A stretch of 64,000 nucleotides of DNA from Prorocentrum cordatum. Taxonomy: Eukaryota. The stretch's first letter is position 1, and the number at the start of each line of letters is the position of its first letter. Of the stretch, positions 44,839-64,000 are shown piece by piece. The notes under the pieces are model-generated. The model did no database searches. It had not been told where the DNA came from and worked only from the letters and a program-made list of their open reading frames with translations. The stretch covers positions 1,364,001 through 1,428,000 of the forward strand of contig CAUYUJ010000225.1 in the NCBI GenBank assembly GCA_963575745.1, given 5' to 3'. Made by a program: the position numbers and the translations under genes.

Positions 44839-44895
44839 CTCCACAAAGGTGCGCAGGGTCCTCGAGTCCTCCTGGCCACGATTGAGCACCAGCTC
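44839..44895 (-). CDS. DUF4336-like exon ELVLNRGQEDSRTLRTFVE
   Basis: ctccag|G ... gag|GA, 57 nt, completes PPILQELVLNR. Confidence 0.8.
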
Positions 44896-45699
44896 CTGGA
44901 GCCGCGGCCGGCGGCCGCCTGCCGCCATGCGGCCCTCCTCCTACGCCCATCAGCCATCATCGTCATTGCCTTCCTTTCTCCTCCTCCTCCTCCTCCTCGT
45001 CCTCGTCCTCCTCCTCGTCCTCCTCCTCCTCCTCCTCCTCCTCGTCCTCCTCCTCCTCCTCCTCGTCCTCCTCCTCCTCCTCCTACCCCACCTTCTCCTC
45101 CTCCCCTTGCGCCTCCTGCTCCTCTTCCCCTTCCGCCTCCTGCTCCTCCTCCTCCTCCTCCTCCTCCTCCTCCTCCTCCTCATCTGCCTCCTCCTCCTCC
45201 TAATAGTATTATTCGTATTTGAATCCTTCTCACCCTCCACCTCCTCGTTCACTCTATTTCACTCACCTTCTCTCCGTCATCCTCCCCCTCCTCCTCCTCA
45301 TCCTCCTTCGCCTCCCTGCTCGTGCTCCTCATCCTCATCATGCTCCTCCTCATCAGCATGTTCAAACATCGCTCTCCCTCTCTCTCTCTCTCTTTCTCCC
45401 TCTCTCTCTATGCTTTTCCCTCTCTTTCTCCAAGTACATAGTTATATTTGCACTGTTGTTCTCTCTCCCTCTCTCTTTCCCCAACTCCCGTCTCTCCTCT
45501 CCTCATATCTATATACAAGATATTGTTGGCTCGCTTCGCTTCGCCACAACATCTTGTCCCTCATCCTCATCCTTGGCGCAGGAGCGCGGGTCTGGTACCT
45601 CGCCGCGCTATGTGGTCACAGAATGTGGCGAGCTCGTGAACTTTCATTGCCATAGGGGTGTAAACTTGATGTTTGTCGCGAGCTCGACGGCTCAGGGCT

Positions 45700-46775
45700 G
45701 CGTGGGTGTGTTTTTGTAAGGAATGAACATGTTTGGAAGTGAAAAACCACCCGACGGGCCGAACCAACTTGTGGTTCACGTCGACGGCTGTTTTTTTTCG
45801 GGGCCCCGGATGGGAGCGTCTGGCGCTCTGCGGGCACGCTGGCGCCGAGGGGCCGTCGTGTGCGTGCGTGTGTGTGTGTGTGTGTTTTCGTAAGGAATGA
45901 GCATGTGCGCGGACGCAGAGCAACCCGACGGGCCGAACCAATTTTTGGTTCACGCTGACGGTTGCTTGTTCTTTTTCGTGCTCGGGATGGGGGGCGTCTG
46001 GCGCACTCCGGGCACGCTGGCGTCGAGGGGCTGTCGTGGGTGTGGGTTTTCGTAAGGAAAGAGCATGCCCCGGGGCGCGGAACCACCCGACGGGCCGCAC
46101 CAATTTTTGGTTCACGTCGACGGTTGCTTGTTCTTTTTCGGGCCCGGGATGGGGGGCGTCTGGCGCCCTCCGGGCACGCTGGCGTCGAGGGGCTGTCGTG
46201 GGTGTGGGTTTTCGTAAGGAAAGAGCATGTCCCGGGGCGCGGAACCACCCGACGGGCCGCACCAATTTTTGGTTCACGTCGACGGTTGCTTGTTCTTTTT
46301 CGGGCCCGGGATGGGGGGCGTCTGGCGCCCTCCGGGCACGCTGGCGTCGAGGGGCTGTCGTGGGTGGGCTTTCGTAAGGAAGGAGCATGTCCCGGGGCGC
46401 GGAGCCACCCGACGGGCCGAACCAATTTTTAGTTCACGTTGACGGCTGCTTGTTCTTTTTCGGGCCCGGGATGGGGGCCTCTGGCGCCCTCAGGGCACGC
46501 TGGCGTCGAGGGGCTGTCGTGGGTGTGGGTTTTCGTAAGGAAAGAGCATGCCCCGGGGCGCGGAGCCACCCAACGGGCCGCACCAATTTTTGGTTCACGT
46601 TGACGGCTGCTTGTTCTTTTTCGGGCCCGGGATGGGGGGCGTCTGGCGCCCTCAGGGCACGCCGGCGTCGAGGGGCTGTCGTGGGCGTGGGTTTTCGTAC
46701 GGAAAGAGCATGTCCCGGGGCGCGGAGCCACCCAACGGGCCGAACCAATTTTTGGTTCACGTTGACGGCTTCGTT
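45700..46775. repeat. 160-162-bp tandem satellite, about 6.5 copies, followed by two ~76-bp copies ending near 46905
   Basis: cgtaagg/cgtacgg at 45889, 46051, 46213, 46373, 46534 and 46696. Confidence 0.95.
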
Positions 46776-48165
46776 TTTGAGAGCGTGACCGGCCGGCCGG
46801 CCGGCGCGCGGAGATGTTTTTCGAACGCAGGCTCACGTTGACGGCTTCGTTTTTGAGAGCGTGACCGGCCGGCCGGCCGGCGCGCGGAGATGTTTTTCGA
46901 ACGTAGGCGTCGCGCGTCCCCCCGCGCGGCGCAGCGCTATGCGCCGTGGCTGTCCTAAGCGGGCGTCGGCGTGTACCTCGCGGCGGTTGGGGCCGTGTGG
47001 GGCGTCTTGGAGGCCTCTTCGGCCGTCTTGTGACGAACTGGGGCATATTAGAGCGATCTGTGGGCGTCTTGGAAGGCTTCTGGGGCCGGTCGGACCAGCT
47101 TGGCGGTAATTTCAAGCATTCTCGGGGTTGTCTTGAGCCCGTCCGGGGGGGTGGCGAATTAGGTGACGCCCATCCGGGGGGGGGGGGTCCCTTATCATTT
47201 GATAGGGAAAAGGAATATGTATATATATATACACACATATACATATATACACACATACACAACAAGACTGCAGTGGCGCTTCGCACCATGCACCTCGGTC
47301 TTTGAAGTTTGGTATGCAGGCGGAATGGCAGGAAGGTCAAACCGACAATTTAGCGATAACTCCTTGTTGACTTTGCCAGCATCACCGTTATAGTAGTGTA
47401 ATTCGTTATCCTTCCTCCATGCTTCTCTTTCCTCATTCTCGCCATACCCTGCGCATTCTCCCTATCTTTCTCAGCTCTTTTTGCGGAGGCTCCTCCTTGG
47501 AGAGTCTTTAGGAGCCTCACAAAAGTTGTTCAGGCTTTCTCAAGGCCTTCTGGAGGCCTCCTGGGCGTGTTCTGGGGGCCTCTGGAGGCGCTCTCGGGTC
47601 ACCCTGCCTCCAACCGCGGTCTCCCTGAACGACCAGGTTACGATTTGGAATGCTTCGGAGGGTGTCTTGGGGCCATCTTGAGCTGCCATGGGGCTCTCTC
47701 AGGGCCATCTTGGACCCCTGTTGTGCCGTTTTGGGGCTCTCTTGGACTGCCTGGAAACTCTTTTCGGATGGTTGTGGGACGATGTTGGAGCTTCCCAGGC
47801 GGCTTCGGATGCCCAGAAAACCGCCGTCTTGGAGCGTCGGGAAGCCGAGAAGAGAACCCCGAAATTCACCAAGAAACCGCAGAAAATCAATGAGTTGTGC
47901 CTCTTGGGGCCTTCTTGGGAGTGCTCTTGGAGGCCTCTTGGGACGTTTCGGAGCGATCTTTGGGGGTATGACCGCTTCTTGGAGGTCATCGTGGACCGTA
48001 TTGGGGCTCTCTGGGGTCGTTTCGGGAGCGCGCCGAAGGCCTGAAACCCGTATAGGGCCGTCTTCGGGCTCTCGTGAGGTTCTCCGGGGTCGTCTGAAGG
48101 GTTGCCCAGAGGACCGGGGAGGGCCAAATTCGTTCGGGGGGGCGCTTTTTCCAGCGTCCCCGGCC

Positions 48166-48166
<1 letters not shown>

Positions 48167-48215
<49 letters not shown>

Positions 48216-48418
48216 CAGAGAGAGAGAGAGAGAGAAATATGAATGGGAATACACATTCATGCATACATACATACATACATACATACATACATACATACAT
48301 ACATCCATAGACACATACATATATGCATGCATACATGCAAACATACATACATTCATACATGCATGCATACAGCTACATATACATATGCATGCACATGTAC
48401 ATTTACAGTTCCACATAC

Positions 48419-48449
<31 letters not shown>

Positions 48450-51435
48450 CATACATCCATACATACATCCATACATACACACACATACACATGCACATGC
48501 ACATACACATACACATACACCTATACATCTACATCTACATATACATCTACATCTACATATACATGTACACACATACACACATATATACATGCATGCATAC
48601 ATACATACATACATGCATACGTACACCGTATTACATGCATACATACCTGCCTGTCTGCCTACATACATACATACATACATGCGTAAAGTTACACACATAC
48701 ATACATACATACATACATACATACATACATACATACATACACACACACATACATACATACATACATACATACATACATACATGCATACATACATACATAC
48801 ATACATACGTGCATACCTGCATGCATGCATGCATATATACATACACGCATACAACAGTTACATACACATGCCCGTAACTACATACATAGTTACATGCATG
48901 CATACACTCATGCAACCATGCATACGCCCATACACACACTCATACTTTCCTACATACATACATACATACATACATACATACAAACAAACACACATGCATA
49001 CATACATACATACATGCAGTACATACATACACACATACATTTCTATACATACATACATTCATGTAAATACATATTCATACAACTTTTCATACATACACAC
49101 GTATACAAACATACACACATACCTGCATCCATACATACATATATTCATCTATACACATGGACAAATGCACACACATCTGCATAACATGTAAACTGTGTGT
49201 ATGGCCATATGTCGTCTTATGCAGCGCCCTCTCTGTATCCGCCACCGTGCCTGCTGCACGTACAGGCGTGGAAGAATGCCAAGCGCTGCCTGACAGGCCC
49301 TCTGTAGTCATCTAAGGGACTTCCCCATCCTCCCGATCACACCCAGCCAACTACCACACCCCTACTCCCAGCGGGTTCCTGGGCGGCCATGGAGCCTCCC
49401 TGAAGCTCTCCAAGGCTTCCATGACGGCCCAGGAGACCCCCACGACGGTCCAAGAGGGCCCCGAGTCGCCGAACGATCGCTCGAAGACGCCCAAGATGGC
49501 CCCACGATGGCCCAAGAGGCCTCCAAGAGGGTCCCAAGAAGCAACAGCCATTGATTGTCCGTCAATGGTTGGAAGATGTCAACGTCTTCGCCTTCTCTGC
49601 TTTCCGACGTTCCAAGACGGCCCAAGAGGCCCACAAAACCACACCAACACTCTCGAAGATGCCTCCAAGAGGACCCTGAGACGGCCTCAGAGCGCCCCAA
49701 GACGGTCCAAGAAGCGCCCACGACGGGGCCCCAAGACGGCCCCGTAAAGGGACCTAAGAGAATACACGCGAACTGAAAATGCTAGCCATCCGCCCCAAGA
49801 AGCCCCCAGGAGGACCCAGAGGCGCCCAAGAGGCCCCAACAAGTCTCCAAGTGGCCCTCCAGAGGCCCCAAGAGGCGCCAGACGTCCCAAAAGAGGCGCC
49901 AAGAGGCCCCCAAACTACTCCCAAGAGGCATCAACACTGCCTCCAGGAGGCCTCCGAGAGGCCTCCGAGCGGCCTCCCACGAGACCCCAACGAACATCCA
50001 ATAAACTTATAACCCGCAACCCAAGCTCGGTGGCGGGATTTGCCGTAGGACGCTGTATGTATGTATTTATGCGTGGATATATACATGCATGCATGCATGT
50101 CTGTCTGTCTGTCTGCTGTCTGTCTGTCGGTCTGTCTGTCTATCTGTCTGTCTGTCTGTCTGTCTGTCGGTATGTGTGTATGTGTATGTATGTATGTATG
50201 TATATATGTGTATATATATATATATGTGATATTACATGTATGTGTGTATGAATTTAGGTATGCGTGTATGTAGGTATGTCTATGTGTGTGGATGTGTGTA
50301 TGGATGCATGCATGCATGCATGTACGTGTGTGTATGGTTGTATGTATGTATGTATGCATGCATGCATGTATCTACGTATGTGCACGCATACATGCATGCA
50401 TACATGGTTGTGTGTATGCGTGTATGTATGCATGCATATATGTATGTATGTATGTGTGTATGTGTATATGACTGCATGCATGTATGTATGTATGTATATG
50501 TACATATGAGTGTACGCATGTATGGATGGTTGTATGTGTGTGCATGCATGTGCGTGAATGCATGTATGTATGTAGGCATGTAGTTAAGCACGTATGTATG
50601 TATATGATTGTACACACATACATATGTACATATATATATATATATATATGTATACGTGTATGAGCCTGCACAGACAGACACGCCTATATGCACGCACACA
50701 TATATACATACATGCAACCGTACCTACCTACATACATGCATACACACATGCATGCATACACACATACATGCATGCACACATACACACGCATACATACATA
50801 CATACATACACACATACATACATGCATACATACATACACACATACATGCATGCGTGCATGCATGCATACATACAGACATGCATATATACATATATACATG
50901 CATGCATGCATGCATGCATGTACACAAACATACATACACACATGCACACACATACATACATACATACATACATACATACATACATACATACATACAAACA
51001 TACATACATACATACATGCATACATACATACATACATACATATATACATACACACATGCATTCACATACAGTACATTACATTACATTACATTACATTACA
51101 TTACATTACATTACATGACATTATATACATACATACATACATACATACATACATACATACATACATACATACATACATGCATGCATGCATACATACATAC
51201 ATACATACATACACATATACATACATACATTACATTACATTACAATACATTACATTACATCACATCACATTACATTACATACATACACACACGTGAATAC
51301 ATGCATACATGCATGCATGCATACATACATTCCATACATACATGCATACACACATACATAAAATTATGCATACATGAATCCATCCATCCATCCATCCATC
51401 CATCCATCCATCCATCCATCCAGACAGACAGACAG

Positions 51436-51465
<30 letters not shown>
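48167..51465. repeat. (CATA)n / (TATG)n AT-rich microsatellite fields (48167-49190, 50055-50610, 50610-51465)
   Basis: Direct reading. Confidence 0.95.
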
Positions 51466-51467
<2 letters not shown>

Positions 51468-52847
51468 CTGCATTTGCGTAGGAATGATCAGACATCGTGT
51501 TTTGGTACGATCCAGGATCGTCCAGACGCAACAACCGGGTTGCTTTGTGGCGTTGGAGTCCTTCCGAATGGTGTTTTTGCACGCTTCAGGATCTTCAAAC
51601 AGTTGTCTCCCAGATGGGCACTTCCCTCAGTGGAAATGAACCCCTGTGAGGGCCTATGGAGACGGAGCTTGGGAGAGTTGATTCCAATATCGTTGATGAG
51701 TCATGGGTTTACACTGGTCCCCATCCTCCTCCTTCTCCACCTCCTCCTCCTCCGCCTTCTCCTTCTCCTCCTCCTCCTGCTCCTGCTCCTCCTCCTCCTC
51801 CTCCTCCTCCTCCTCCTCCTCCTCCTCCTCCTGGTATCCTCCCCCTCCTCCTCCTCCTCTCCTCCTCCTCCTCCTCCTCCTCCTCCTCCTCCTCCTCCTC
51901 CTCCTCCTCCTCCTCCTCCTCCTCCCCCTCTCCTTCTCCTCCTCCTCCTCCTCCTCCTCCTGCTCCTCCTCCTCCTCCTCCTCCTCCTCCTCCTCCGCCT
52001 CCTCCTCCTCCTCCTCCTTCTCTCCCATATCACCACTTCCCCTCTCTCTACAGCCACTGATGATCCTCCCTGTGCTCATCCGCCCAGATGGCCTCCAAAC
52101 CGAAGTGACTTCGTCGCCGAACCCTGGAGGGCGCGCGCCGCCATCTCCACCCAAGGGGACCCAAAATCCTTCGGGCCGGCCGATGGGCAAAATTTCGCAC
52201 TACTCGCGCGACAGGGATGCTTCCCAGAGATCCAACGCATTGAAAGAATCAAGACGAAGGTTTTTCGCAATTTTCGGCCTCTTGGGGCCCTCGCCGGGCC
52301 CCGGGACCATCAAAAAACGATTCAGGATGAAAAGTTGGTCCTGGGGAACTGGGCGAGACTTCCAGGGACTCGGTGTCGAAAAAAACACAACATCGGATCT
52401 CTGGGTTGCTGGGGCAAACTTCAACGCGCCCACCTGCCCCCGATTCAATGTCGGTGGGCATCGCCAGCCAGGCGCAGGAGTTCGGCCAGTGGGCAAATCG
52501 GCACCTCCTGGCGCAGCCCGCCAATGTTTCAATTGGGGGCGCTGGGGGGGGGTCACCTTGTTTGGTTGCAACGGCGTGGAGCCACGCCGCGGTCGGAGGC
52601 ACCCGATGGGCACCACAGGGCCCAGCTGGGCGGTCAGGAACGGGACGACCGCTGACGGGGGGAGAGCAACGGGAGGATGAGGGCAAACATGTTTCCGATT
52701 CGTGGCAGCTTTCACTGCACATCACCCCTCGGGGGCTGTCCTCGTTCGAGCCACGGGCCACGGGGTGCTCTCGCGCAAATCAGCACAAGAGGTACAGCCC
52801 CGCAGAGCTGGGGCGCCAGGTTGCGGCCGTTGGCCGTGCCGCTCTGC

Positions 52848-52888
52848 ACTGCTGCTGCTACTGCTGCTGCTGCTACTGCTGCTGCTGC

Positions 52889-52935
<47 letters not shown>

Positions 52936-52966
52936 GGCTGCTTGCTGCTTGCTGCTTGCTGCTTGC

Positions 52967-53013
<47 letters not shown>

Positions 53014-53059
53014 GCTGCTTGCTGCTTGCTGCTGCTGCTTGCTGCTGCTGCTGCTGCTG

Positions 53060-53090
<31 letters not shown>
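52848..53090. repeat. (CTG)n/(CTTG)n microsatellite
   Basis: Direct reading. Confidence 0.95.
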
Positions 53091-53196
53091 TGTTCTTTTT
53101 CCTGGGCCACTCACTGGTCGACCTCCCGAGATTTTTCCCCCCCGCTCACTGGTCGACCTCCCGAGCTTTTTTCCTGAGCTTTTCCCCCCCCACTCA

Positions 53197-53676
<480 letters not shown>

Positions 53677-56256
53677 TTAGAGGGAGTCGGGAGAGGAGGA
53701 TGGAGGCATCAGCATCCACTCCTTCGCTTCGTCCACTGTTCATTCAAAACCTCCGTTCGGGTCTAGACCCGGTCCTCCTCCTCCTCCTCCTCCTCCTCCT
53801 CCTCCTCCTCCTCCTCCTCCTCCCTCCTCCTTCTCCTCCTCCACCTTCCCCTTCTCAGGGAACGTGGCGAGCCTCACTCTCCCTACAGTCAACGTCGATA
53901 GCAAGGATGCACGATCAGGACGCAAGGGCCCTGGAAGGGCACGTTGGCACTTTTCGAGCAGGGCGCGACCAAAAACCCAAGGAAGAAAGGGCACCTTAAC
54001 ACCTGAACTCATCCCCAACCTTGCCGAACTGGCGCTGGGATATACCCAGGCCAGAACGCAGGGATGCAAGGGTACCGTTGCAACATCCCGCATTCCCTTG
54101 GACATGCGCGGTGCTTCATCGTCCTGGATCCCGCGGGAGCAGGGGGAGGGCACGAGAAGCGTCGTTTCGACGAGCCACACTGATGGCCTATCCACCAAAC
54201 TCGATCAGATGAGGAGGAGGAGCAGGAGGAGAAGGAGAACGAGGATGACCAATATATAAACCCAAAAGTCAGCCACGATTTCGGCATAATTTCTCCCTTT
54301 AAGCTCTTCTTCACAAGCCCCTACAAATATTTATTCTACTGAGGGAAATGCCTCGTTGGGAGACAACCGTTTGAAGATCCTGAAGCGTTCCAGAGCACCT
54401 TTCTCGGGAGGACTCCAACGCCACGAAGCAACCTGACTGTTCTAGCGTGACGATCTGGAATCGTGCCAGAACACCATTCCTGGGACTTCAACACCGCGAA
54501 TCAAAGCCACTATTGCGCCTTGATAATCCGGACTCGCTCCAAAGCCCAATTTCTGGCACAATTTCTGGTACGCTGCGCTAAGGCGAGAGCCACATTTTGA
54601 AAAGGAGCTGACCTCAATGTGTAATGCTCTTGCAAATGTTTAAGACGAGTGTGCGCGGCGCGAGGGCGAGAACCACATTTTGAAAACGGCCCACCCTCAA
54701 TCCATGAAGTTCTTTCAAAATTCGCTGGCCCAACGGGCCAGAGGCGTGCCAAGACCTCTGGTAACAAGTTACCAATCTTCTAGCTCGCCCGCGCGTGGCG
54801 GCCCCTGGGCGCCCCAGAGCGAAAAGTATCCCGGGAAGGGCCGGGCGGGGTTCCGCCAGAGATGCTTGATCTCTTGGGCGCGGCCCTAAGGCCAAAGAGG
54901 TGGCAGCCCTACGGCCTGAGGCCAAGAGCGCTCCAAGACGGCCCCAGATGGCCTCAAGATGGCCCAAGATGCCCCCAACACGCTCCAACACGCCCCAAGA
55001 GGCCTCCAAGAGGCGTCCCAAGAAGGCCCCAAGAGGCAAAAACCATTGAGTTTCTCGAAGTGTTTGAAATATGTCGCTTTTCAGCTTCTCGACGCTCCCA
55101 GACCGCCCAAACCGCTCCCAAGACCGCCCGAAAACGTCTCAAGAGCTGTCGAAGAGGGCCCCAAAACGGCCCAAGAGGGCCCCAAGACCGCCCAAGCGGC
55201 CTCCAAGACGGGCCAAGAGGCCTCCAAGACGGCTCCAAAAGAGGGTCGAGCTTTCTGCCCCAAGATGCACCCAGGAGGCCCTAATTGCCTAAGAGGCCCC
55301 CAAGAAGCCACTAAAGGCCTGCCCCCAGGAAGCCCCAGGAGGCTCCCAAGAGGCCCCAAAATGCCGTCACGAGGCCTCCCCAGAAATCCCAACAAGCCTG
55401 CGCCAAAAACGAGTGCCCAGACAACACCGCAGGGGTCTACGAACCCCCGAAACCAACTCCACAATCACTGCGTCACCTCCACCGCACCCCACGCACCCCC
55501 TCAGGAAGAAAACAGCCCCCGCTCCGCCCAGCCGCACCGCATTGACAACGACCACTTGGGCAATCGACAGCCGTGCGACAATATGGGCCAGCGGAATGAG
55601 CGAAACGACTAAATGTTAAGACGAATGTGCGCGGCGCTTCAGCGAGAATCGCATTTTGAAAACCACCCGCCCTCAATCCGTGAAACTCTTGCAGTGTTTA
55701 AATCCGGATGCGCGCGGCGCTAAGGCGAGGGTCACATTTTGGAAGCGACCCGCCCTCCATCTCCTCAGGATCATGAAATGGTGGGGAAATCTCAGGCGAA
55801 ACGCCCGGCCCGCCTTTTCGACTGGCCTCGGAGTGGGACAGGGAATAGTTAAGGACAAGGAATGGAGGATGAGGGGGGGGGGTCGCGGTAGGGCCGTACA
55901 CCACCGCGAATGGGACAGGCAAAAACAGGTCCGAGGCTAGCCAAGAACACCCTGCCCATCCAGCATCCTTAGGGCCACATCCGCCCGCGAGTGGTAGGGC
56001 AGGGGCGGCTTGCCCAAGGATGATCAAGGGATCAAGGGTGCCCTGCCCATCGCATCCTTAGGGCTCGGCCCAAATGACGTCGCAACGCGCAACCGAAGGA
56101 TGCCAGCTCGCCCAAAGGGTACTCCAAGTGGCCGGCCAGCGAAAGTGGCCACAGATGGACCGAAGGGCAAAGGATGCAAGGGTCACCTTGGAAAGTCGCT
56201 CATCCTTACCATGGAGTCTGACTGTAGCTCATGATGTGCATTGCTGCCCCGAGTAC

Positions 56257-56456
56257 GTCCAGGGAAGCAGGCCCCCCCAGCCCAGCTCTGGTGCTCGCGA
56301 CTTGGCCGCGTCCGCGAAGGCCTCCCCCGTTGGCTGGACGTCAATGGCCCCGGACTGGAAGAAGAAGGAGAATATGACTATCTTCTGCCAGCCCCGCTGC
56401 ATGGCAGCCTCGTCAGCTTCGGCGGGCTCCAGGGGGCCGTCGCGCGCGTGGTAGAT
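56257..56456 (-). CDS. DUF4336-like exon [66 protein letters not shown]
   Basis: Hand translation (this frame is not in the ORF track). HARD...RGWQ.IV.F..FF...WGGL.PW is the family core. GT donor; the acceptor is non-canonical or uncertain. Confidence 0.85.
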
Positions 56457-57494
56457 CGCCAGAGGAGGATCCGCGGCGGGGAGGCACGTGCTGGCTCCGC
56501 TCTGGTCCCCATCGCTCCCCTCCTCCTCCCCCTCCTCCTCCTCCTCCTCCTCCTCCTCCTCCTCCTCCTCCTCCTCCCTCCTCCCCCCCTCCTCCTTCTC
56601 CTCCGCTCATCACTCCCCTCCTCCTCCTCCTCCCTCCTCCTCCTCCTCCTCCTCCTCCTCCTCCTCCTCCTCCTCCTCCTCCTCCTCCTCCTCCTCCTCC
56701 TCCTCCTCCTCCTCCCCCCCTCCCCCTCCCCTCCCTCCTCCTCCTCCTCCTCCTCCTCCTCCTCCTCCTCCTCCTCCTCCTCCTCCTCCTCCTCCTCCTC
56801 CTCCTCCTCCTCCTCCTCCTCCTCCTCCTCCTCCTCCTCTCCTCCACCCACCATCCGCCGATCCCCTGCATTCCCCTTCGATCCAGCTCGTCCCGCTTGC
56901 ATCTCGTAGCCCCCTCCTTCCCCATCATTTACCCCCCCCTCCTCCAGGGGGGCGGGGAGGGGAGATGATGGGCAGGAGGGTTCGAGCGAGGGGGGAGATG
57001 ACAGGGGAGGCGGGCTCGAGGGAGGAAGGGAGCGGCCCCCCCCTTCCTCCCCCGAACCCGCCTCCCCCGCCATCCTCCCCCCTCCCCCCCGCCACCCACC
57101 GAAGGTGCCCCCCACCCCCGCCCCCCTCGCCCCCGCTGCGCCGCGCCCTCCGCGGCTTGCATGCTCGTTTTGCTATCGCCATTTCCGCTGGTCTGCCTTC
57201 GATCCGCCCCTGCTGCAAGACTCGATGATCTTCAGAACGTGAGTTAGCCACAGCGTGTGTGTTGTCCATCGAGGCCGTTCGATACGACGCAGGCGATGTG
57301 ATGCTCTACCGGCTGGACTGAACGGGATAAACACACATTGGGCTAACACACGTCCTGAGGACAACCGAAAAACGAAGTCGAAAGAGGCCCGTCCACGAAA
57401 TTACCCAAACGCCGCTTAGCTCGAGGAGCCCTGCCCGCAAGTTCCCCCCTCGCCCCCGCTGCGCCGCCCCCTCCGTGGCATCCCCCTCCGGGCT

Positions 57495-57563
57495 CAGCGG
57501 CCGCGGGTCCTCCCGGAGGATCGCCGGGGGGTCGCGGGGGACCGACACGAGCAGGTCGTTCAC
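57495..57563 (-). CDS. DUF4336-like exon VNDLLVSVPRDPPAILREDPRPL
   Basis: cccag|G acceptor; V.D..V.VP..PP.IL..DP.PL pattern precedes (I/L)(Y/F)HARD. Confidence 0.85.
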
Positions 57564-58039
57564 CTGGGCCAGCGGAAGACGCGGGGAGGGCGGGGGAGCG
57601 ACGGGTGGGCAGGGACGGGGAGAAGAGGGCAGGGGGGGCCAAGAGGAAGGAGAGGATGGAGGCAGAAGAGAAGGATGTAGGAGGGAGGGGGGCCGATGAG
57701 GAAAGAGGGCGAATTTTTGTCACAGAGGAAAGAGGGCGAGGAGGAGAGAGAAAGAGGAGGAGAGAGAAAGAGGAGGAGAGATAAAGATGAGGAGAGAGAA
57801 AGAGGACTAGGATAAGTAGGAGCAGGAGTAGGAGTCAAGCTAGCCAGCTCGAGCGAGTCAAGCATGGCATGCCCATTCCCACCCGCCCTCCCACAACATA
57901 AGAAACATTGCTGGCGCAACTGGGGACCGAAATCAGATCGGCAAGGTGGTTTGCCACAGCTGATGCAGCCGCGATGGCGGCTACCGATCAGAAATCCCTG
58001 GCGCGTCTCAAAGACTGCGCTGGCATTTCAGCACGAGCC

Positions 58040-58325
58040 GAGGAGGCCCCAGGAAGCCCCAGGAGGCCCCAGGAGGCCTCAGGAGAAGCCCCAGCGACCC
58101 CCAGAAAGCCCCAGTAGACTTCAGGAGGGCCCAGGAAGCCCCAGGTAATTCCAGGAGGCTTCAGGAAGCCCCAGGAAGTGTCAGGAAGCCCCCGGGGAAT
58201 CGCAGGAAACCCCAGGATGCCTCAGGAGGCTCGAGGAGGATCCACGAGGCCCTGGGGAAGCCCGGGCGGGAAGCCCCAGGATGTCCCAGGAGACCCTGTG
58301 AGGCCCCAGAGGGCCCCAGGCGCTC
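58040..58325. repeat. Degenerate 10-bp ccccaggaag minisatellite
   Basis: Direct reading. Confidence 0.85.
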
Positions 58326-62935: not shown

Positions 62936-63835
62936 TCTAATTTGAGTCTGCGGTGGGTACCCACTGTGCTGTGCCCCTCAGCAGCCCTCGAAAGTGGCGA
63001 CAGTTTCACAGATCGCAGCCCCCCAGGGATGGCGAGGTCTAATTTGAGTACCCACTGTGCTGGGCCCCCAGCAGCCCTCGAAAGTGGCGACAGTTTCACA
63101 GATCGCAGCCCCCCAGGGATGGCGAGGTCTAATTTGAGTCTGCGGTGGGTGCCCACTGTGCTGGGCCCCCCAGCAGCCTCGAAAGTGGCGACAGTTTCAC
63201 AGATCGCAGCCCCCCAGGGATGGCGAGGTCTAATTTGAGTCTGCGGTGGGTACCCACTGTGCTGGGCCCCTCAGCAGCCCTCGAAAGTGGCGACAGTTTC
63301 ACAGATCGCAGCCCCCCAGGGATGGCGAGGTCTAATTTGAGTCTGCGTGGCGTCACTGTGCTGGGCCCCCCAGCAGGCCTCGAAAGTGGCGACAGTTTCA
63401 CAGATCGCAGCCCCCCAGGGATGGCGAGGTCTAATTTGAGTCTGCGGTGGGTACCCACTGTGCTGGGCCCCTCAGCAGCCCTCGAAAGTGGCGACAGTTT
63501 CACAGATCGCAGCCCCCCAGGGATGGCGAGGTCTAATTTGAGTCTGCGGTGGGTACCCACTGTGCTGGCAGCCCCCCAGTGGCGACGTTTCACAGACGAC
63601 AGTTTCACAGATCGCAGCCCCCCAGGGATGGCGAGGTCTAATTTGAGTCTGCGGTGGGTGCCCACTGTGCTGGGCCCCTCAGCAGCCCTCGAAAGTGGCG
63701 ACAGTTTCACAGATCGCAGCCCCCCAGGGATGGCGAGGTCTAATTTGAGTCTGCGGTGGGTACCCACTGTGCTGGGCCCCTCAGCAGCCCTCGAAAGTGG
63801 CGACAGTTTCACAGATCGCAGCCCCCCAGGGATGG
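62936..63835 (+). repeat. 102-bp tandem satellite, about 9 highly similar copies
   Basis: tctaatttgagtctgcggtgggtacccactgtgctgggcccc...cagggatggcgagg; 34-aa periodicity in the ORF track. Confidence 0.95.
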
Positions 63836-64000
63836 GAAGGAGACGCGCGAGTGGGAAGGAGACGCGCGAGCAGTGCTCCATTCAAAACGAGAACCCAACG
63901 CAGGAGGGTTGGGAAAAACATGTAAGACAACAGAAAAACGCAAGTAAATGATGACAACGTCGGCCCAACGAAAATCCCTTGGAATTTCGTCACGTCGCTC

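Follow-up and report, generated by a model that had tools for sequence, protein, structure and literature searches.

A gene of the DUF4336 family in the dinoflagellate Prorocentrum cordatum carries an intron of 1,038 nt (56457..57494, minus strand) that ends without an AG and is missing from the RNA contigs of three runs, which go from 56457 directly to 57496. This stretch is a real intron of the gene and its excision restores the conserved sequence ...EDPRPL-IYHARD... in the protein. It lies within a window of 64,000 nucleotides (the whole stretch of DNA that we have analysed and to which all positions refer). Our preferred reading, held with moderate confidence, is that of a transposon-like "introner" intron that is removed at the RNA level without the help of an AG, as has been described for the parasite Amoebophrya. 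What we see here is an AG-less intron removed to the exact base from the mRNA of a free-living, bloom-forming dinoflagellate, something that in the literature searched is described only for Amoebophrya. No report of AG-less introns in Prorocentrum was found in the full-text literature searched (subscription journals fell outside its scope).

The gene and its ordinary introns

Both reading frames that flank the intron belong to the same minus-strand gene, assigned by Pfam to the DUF4336 family (PF14234). The exon upstream of the intron (Eb, 57495..57563, 23 residues), delimited by tblastn, boundary letters and Pfam, falls on positions 158-180 of the PF14234 profile and the exon downstream (Ec, 56257..56456, IYHARDGPL...LLPWT) on positions 182-252, so that the join between the two is free of gaps. 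Exon Ec alone reaches 36 bits (gathering cut-off 28.5, E 6e-09) and is also present without a single difference in the RNA contigs of the three runs. A protein search with Ec (E <= 0.001) provided the homologues used throughout this work, 20 hits among 82 candidates. All 20 carry PF14234, and those with a name are dinoflagellates (Durusdinium, Alexandrium, Prorocentrum), the majority having no source name. The full-length homologues placed by tblastn seven exons of the gene in the window, from about 60485 to 39353, all of them open and conserved, with the N-terminal exons located past base 64000.

Five of the six introns of the gene in the window are of the ordinary dinoflagellate G[T/C/A]..AG/G type. 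Exon Eb is preceded by a GC..AG/G intron (60410-57564, from the boundary letters) and exon Ec is adjoined downstream by a GT..AG/G intron (53327..56256, minus strand), seen in the contigs of the three runs as a joint from 53322 to 56253 (cut at +4). Further downstream are a GA..AG/G intron of 8,361 nt (44896..53256, minus strand), identified by the loose contig letters at 53255, which equal the window at 44864-44893, and two more recognized from their boundary letters, one GA..AG/G (44838-42480) and one GC..AG/G (42329-39443). An identical boundary repeat of 1-8 nt is found at each of these five ordinary introns; in the 8,361-nt intron it has 8 nt, CTCCAGGA.

The G+C content of the window varies between about 0.42 and 0.67 per 2 kb (the mean published for the P. 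cordatum genome is 59.7%; PMC10666404), and the sequence is rich in microsatellites and short tandem repeats. Among the 150 longest ORFs of the window that are not repetitive, the 121 lying up to 53644 were scanned with Pfam, which revealed no other credible gene; the seven matches were either below the cut-off or on repetitive or low-complexity stretches. Within the 8.4-kb intron there is an A+T-richer block (47520-52652, G+C 0.42-0.47) with long open frames of 520 aa (plus strand), 446 aa (minus) and 425 aa (plus) that have no Pfam match, and this block may be an unclassified mobile element. A 102-nt tandem repeat at 63048-63835 (7.7 copies, 92% matches) probably sits in the next upstream intron of the gene. 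Degenerate repeats with a period of 10 nt (AGGAAGCCCC and similar) were detected inside two introns, at 58041-58320 and 54922-55238, where they yield long open frames of no evident meaning.

The junction in RNA and in homologous proteins

Exon Ec is present in 20 of the 24 public runs listed (9 studies), four of which are on record as RNA. We have aligned the contigs of three runs from three studies (X8, a polyA metatranscriptome, X9 and X4) to positions 53200-56514. All the aligned runs are assembled contigs, in which rare forms are dropped. One contig per run (646, 1,429 and 1,505 nt) matches 53255-53322 and 56253-56457 with no differences over 273 nt, 205 of them in 56253-56457. The same contigs skip the 2,930 nt in between, which have GT..AG ends on the strand of the gene and correspond to the neighbouring intron, and therefore they represent spliced RNA of this locus. 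From 53255 they pass, across the GA..AG junction, to window 44864-44893, with which the next exon starts.

At the other side, the aligned stretch ended at 56514, and the donor side of the junction is known through the 30 loose contig letters that follow 56457. In each of the three contigs these letters correspond exactly, and uniquely, to window 57496-57525, the end of exon Eb; the mRNA letters immediately before base 56457 are ...GGACCCGCGGCCGCT. It follows that 56458-57495 (or an equally long segment shifted by one or two bases) is absent from the mRNA, which encodes ...EDPRPL-IYHARD... The preliminary description of this DNA had proposed precisely this join, with 1038 nt removed between GA repeats, from the sequence alone, and had suggested a cDNA or RNA check of it; the check, with the contigs of three runs from three studies, gives the junction 56457 to 57496 and bears the proposal out. 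The contigs contradict both alternatives that had been offered alongside it, namely the pairing of a GA donor after 57510 with a CG acceptor before 56471 and the use of the AG at 56492-56491, which would add 11 residues; the contigs match up to 56457 and then pass to Eb. The 57 intronic bases 56458-56514 are covered by no contig, a figure that is not evidence of efficient splicing.

The homologous proteins tell the same story. The motif DPRPL-x-[FY]HAR, which spans the junction, is contiguous in 17 of the 20 homologues, the other three being P0002 (which starts there), P0010 (which carries 78 additional residues, inserted two positions upstream) and P0020 (the publicly available P. cordatum model, see below). 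When the intron is retained, the frame runs into a stop after 61 further codons (ORF 57306..57719). As a separate observation, the genome-derived models P0010, P0015 and P0019, of Symbiodiniaceae type, differ from sequences obtained from transcripts at a distance of 2-20 residues on the upstream side of the junction. They show 78 residues inserted after DPR, 14 residues inserted ahead of DPRPL, and the replacement of SPPDILLE. These deviations suggest that introns near this spot are mis-modelled in those other dinoflagellates too.

The borders of the intron

On the minus strand, exon Eb ends in ...CCGCGGCCGCTG at 57495 and exon Ec starts with ATCTACCAC at 56456. Because GA flanks both borders (upstream copy at 57494..57495, downstream copy at 56456..56457, minus strand, a single copy being left in the mRNA), three readings of the intron ends are possible. 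These equivalent registers are GA..GC (57495..56458), AG..CG and GC..GA (57493..56456), and none of them has AG at the 3' end, just as had been described beforehand for the acceptor predicted by homology, with coordinates and letters that we find unchanged. The 5' end is GA (57495) or GC (57493) in two of the three registers, which fits the GT/GC/GA donor rule of dinoflagellates. At the 3' end, where a standard dinoflagellate intron has AG, this one has GC, CG or GA. A downstream exon starting with G (G-H) appears in the GA..GC register only, in which the exon begins with GATC. The 4-nt words at the two borders agree in three of four positions (GAGC/GATC) and the exact direct repeat is 2 nt long. 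The 2-nt GA repeat alone is not significant.

The nearest AG upstream (56491..56492, minus strand) is 34 nt away from the 3' junction, the last 34 nt of the intron being devoid of AG, and it is not used as an acceptor in the contigs examined. Excision at the level of RNA would have to rely on a 3' site other than AG. A recursive canonical splice cannot make the 3' junction because the nearest AG is that far upstream, and stwintrons and any nested or recursive canonical splicing are ruled out. The reading as an antisense intron is ruled out as well, the reverse complement also lacking a terminal AG.

The gene model P0020

One of the homologues, P0020, is labelled Prorocentrum cordatum and is identical (100%) over part of exon Ec in the protein search and, by tblastn, also over further exons of the window. 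It is the sole hit with that label, and the sole one above 83% identity, among the 20 hits from 82 candidates; its cluster has one member from one contig. In view of these matches and of the published mean G+C, we assign the window to P. cordatum or to a strain nearly identical with it. Its sequence and tblastn placement imply a GA..AG/G intron at 56322..57473 (minus strand), contradicted by the contigs over 56322-56457. As a consequence of this placement P0020 gains seven residues (SPEGDAT) and loses 45 conserved ones (IYHARD...PTGE). No hit with the full exon Ec at 100% identity was present among the 20 hits from 82 candidates. The gene model P0020 is wrong at this junction. The error is explained by the way in which the annotation was set up: according to the methods section of the P. 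cordatum genome paper, GC and GA donors were the only sites to which the tools for mapping and for prediction had been adapted (PMC10666404). A similar annotation error is to be expected wherever AG-less introns of such kind occur.

Complementarity of the intron ends

The first and the last 30 nt of the intron form a predicted duplex of -42.7 kcal/mol. Among 3,000 random pairs of 30-mers from the same strand, taken 1,038 nt apart, the mean was -13.1 (sd 6.6) and 0.17% reached -42.7. For comparison, both arms were also shuffled by mononucleotide 3,000 times; owing to the G-rich composition of one arm and the C-rich composition of the other, the shuffles already average -30.8, and 1% of them reached -42.7. 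With arms of 40/45 nt the pairing calculated by RNAduplex extends to 30 bp and -52.7 kcal/mol, in a helix that spans the junction, with the 5' arm at 57461..57495 and the 3' arm at 56454..56487 (both minus strand), the latter reaching 2-3 nt into Ec. The arms are reciprocal best partners: the best partner of the 5' arm is the 3' end of the intron (ranks 1-2, in neighbouring registers, among 4,055 downstream windows) and the best partner of the 3' arm is the 5' end (rank 1 among 3,900 upstream windows). The longest uninterrupted run in the helix is 6 bp when only Watson-Crick pairs are counted and 12 bp with G-U pairs (57491-57480 with 56470-56459). The inverted repeat at the intron ends is hence real though imperfect, and its complementarity is non-random. 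The repeats given in the preliminary description (57493-57466 versus 56458-56485) are upheld by these figures.

The ends of the other five introns of the gene were compared in the same way and tend in the same direction, the fraction of random pairs reaching their end energies being 1.5%, 8.8%, 0.17%, 12.7% and 5.7%. The 8,361-nt GA..AG intron has an end duplex of -42.6 kcal/mol, as strong as that of the AG-less intron.

In the minimum-energy fold of a 1,078-nt segment of the pre-mRNA, the partner of the 5' splice region is 57441-57397 (pair probabilities around 0.8-0.9) instead of the 3' end. A fold constrained to contain the terminal helix comes out at -424.8 versus -427.6, only 2.8 kcal/mol worse, and by this calculation the terminal-helix fold and the local fold are effectively tied. 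The local hairpin (57397-57514, minus strand) joins the end of Eb and the start of the intron with 57441-57397 through some 45 bp at -53.4 kcal/mol, and competes with the terminal helix. Within 57441-57397 the junction between exon and intron recurs as an imperfect inverted copy (GCCGCTTAGCTCGAG versus GCCGCTGAGCCCGGAG).

When tested for strand asymmetry, the helix gave no sign of selection at the level of RNA, being equally strong on the antisense strand. It may simply be a remnant of inverted repeats in the DNA. For an analysis of covariation, no orthologous intron was found: a metagenome scan for relatives of exon Ec provided three loci, all of them uninterrupted, cDNA-like contigs belonging to another species (81-83% identity).

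The interior of the intron

The interior of the intron is occupied by several kinds of repeats (all given on the minus strand). Tandem Repeats Finder identified a (GAG)n microsatellite of about 111 units at 56515..56845. Repeat searches revealed two strong hairpins, with arms at 56990-57035/57036-57081 and 56921-56945/56948-56972, and a direct repeat of 36 nt in two copies that are 94% alike (57121-57156 and 57444-57479). The copies of this repeat flank a unit of 287 nt that, by eye, seems less G+C-rich and has its own inverted repeat (around 57240-57360). The 287-nt unit is probably an insertion nested in the intron, its flanking duplication being unusually long, and there is no other copy of it in the window. 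The only Rfam matches within the intron were sub-threshold, resembled miRNA precursors and fell on the internal hairpins; no tRNA was found in it. There is no second copy of the element in the 64-kb window, where a blastn search with the intron matched only the microsatellite at 51714-52022. Judging from the sequence, the anatomy looks transposon-like, with imperfect terminal inverted repeats just inside a short direct repeat and with hairpins, a nested insert and a microsatellite within.

How the intron may be removed

The most likely way in which such an intron could be dealt with by the cell can be pictured as follows. A transposon-like insert would be tolerated in the gene since it is precisely removed. 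In the pre-mRNA the ends of the intron would pair over some 30 bp, bringing the exon ends together. The 5' site would be an ordinary dinoflagellate GA or GC donor; in the GA register the exon that follows begins with GA, in agreement with the usual G-H. What sets the 3' cut would be its position at the foot of the helix, and not an AG. In this scheme the helix would form in vivo and guide the cut, and the stretch would be removed from the RNA transcribed from this same locus; the spliceosome as the agent is a real possibility, which we would place slightly short of probable.

One competing explanation situates the event in the DNA. The 1,038 bp would be a transposon-type insertion present in the assembled copy, and the transcripts would derive from a copy, an allele or a subpopulation of cells without the insert, the assembled locus being silent or giving a truncated product. 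The anatomy is indeed that of an insertion, with inverted ends inside a direct repeat and with the "empty site" exactly restored in the RNA, and dinoflagellate genes are often multi-copy. Against this, no second P. cordatum protein containing Ec was found among the 20 hits from 82 candidates, P0020 being alone in its cluster, and the contigs match the locus without difference over 273 nt plus two stretches of 30 loose letters, using the junctions of its own neighbouring introns. The seven exons in the window, all open and conserved, speak against it too, and a 2-bp non-TA duplication is not known to be typical of the common cut-and-paste superfamilies. We regard this explanation as quite improbable. 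Much more improbable still is an artefact, either base errors of the assembly at the acceptor or a jump of the reverse transcriptase over the hairpin at the GA repeat. Template switching does give apparent non-canonical "introns" with short direct repeats across structured RNA, but here an identical junction was assembled in three runs from three studies and it restores exactly the conserved protein. Retention would lead to the stop after 61 codons mentioned above, yet the downstream exons are open and conserved. As for base errors, an AG acceptor would require at least two base changes, and no register pairs a legal donor with an AG.

A different kind of alternative accepts removal at the RNA level and attributes it to a hairpin-guided, non-spliceosomal machinery, modelled on the nonconventional introns of euglenids, whose excision follows that of the conventional introns and yields circles. 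Both ends of our intron are non-canonical or ambiguous, the terminal pairing brings them together, and the GA..GC register has a pyrimidine/purine step at both junctions, as reported for euglenids (PMC11282704). On the other hand, its 5' end is compatible with the normal GA or GC donors of dinoflagellates, its downstream exon starts with G-A like those that follow spliceosomal dinoflagellate introns, and the CAG/CTG positions of euglenids are absent. We consider it unlikely, and retain as the preferred reading an introner-like intron that is spliced out of the RNA without AG.

Significance

A wider proposition is that core dinoflagellates, and not only Amoebophrya, possess an AG-independent way of removing introns, guided by the pairing of their ends and possibly non-spliceosomal. 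At present we can put this forward only tentatively, and judge it rather doubtful. If true, this route would neutralise insertions of inverted-repeat transposons in exons, and many dinoflagellate gene models would be wrong at such sites, because the published dinoflagellate annotations force AG acceptors. Whatever the mechanism, the gene offers a built-in comparison for the choice of the 3' site, its AG-less intron with hairpin-forming ends being accompanied by a simple GT..AG intron and by a GA..AG one whose ends are complementary to the same degree.

Comparison with known intron systems

The introns of dinoflagellates are known to have identically repeated boundaries (Mendez et al., 2015, PMC5032977). 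In the cases treated there, a repeat of 2-9 nt is found at both borders with one copy kept in the mRNA, and the GA of our intron behaves in the same way; it differs in having no GG, while the repeats of that study always include GG and usually AGG (PMC5032977). Roy et al. (bioRxiv 10.1101/2020.10.14.339549) trace such boundary repeats to the duplication of target sites by introner-like elements. For P. cordatum itself, the introns have been reported to be enriched in inverted-repeat "introner elements" ("IE+") (Dougan et al., 2023, PMC10666404). The intron described here shares with those "IE+" introns and with the introner-like elements of Symbiodinium and Polarella (Roy et al.), in the features given for them, the inverted repeats that reach the 3' splice site, a donor of GA or GC type and, in part, the recurrence of the 5' G-H-N-N word where the following exon begins (GAGC/GATC in our case, equal in 3 of 4 letters). 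The difference is at the 3' site: in the Symbiodinium-type classes described, it is an AG provided by the end of the element or by the target duplication, whereas here the end is GC, CG or GA. In the Symbiodinium and Polarella elements the target duplication provides the 5' site. An AG-less kind could not be reported among the "IE+" introns of P. cordatum, because the tools, according to the methods section of that paper, had been adapted only for GC and GA donors.

More distant parallels are found outside the dinoflagellates. The nonconventional introns of euglenids, as outlined in PMC11282704, have non-canonical borders, pairing ends, repeats resembling target-site duplications and a variable length of up to kilobases, all of which recall our intron. 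They belong to an unrelated lineage, and their pairing of CAG at +4..+6 with CTG at -8..-6 is absent here, where in addition the 3' arm is pyrimidine-rich (PMC11282704). The MITE-derived introns of the tunicate Fritillaria borealis are likewise transposon-like inserts with non-canonical ends, efficiently removed by the animal's own splicing machinery (PMC11282704). Apart from the animal lineage, they differ in their border dinucleotides, and the same source attributes the tunicate case to an altered spliceosome.

The closest resemblance is to the introner elements of Amoebophrya. Strains A25 and A120 have RNA-supported non-canonical introns with inverted repeats of 8-20 nt and direct repeats of 3-5 nt (Farhat et al., 2021, PMC7789003). 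In comparison with what is given there, our direct repeat is shorter, 2 nt (4 nt with one mismatch), so that it falls below that range. The inverted repeat, perfect over 8-20 nt in Amoebophrya, is here an imperfect one of about 30 bp, uninterrupted over 12 bp with G-U pairs and over 6 bp with Watson-Crick pairs only, and the length of 1,038 nt is just beyond the 40-1,000 nt analysed in that work. An element of the Amoebophrya type would be expected to have many related copies in the genome; within the 64-kb window we find no other copy of ours. The host, a syndinian parasite in that case, is here a free-living photosynthetic core dinoflagellate. What both have in common are RNA-supported borders other than GT-AG, complementary ends able to join the exon borders by means of a hairpin, a short direct repeat over the borders and an interior free of any transposase.
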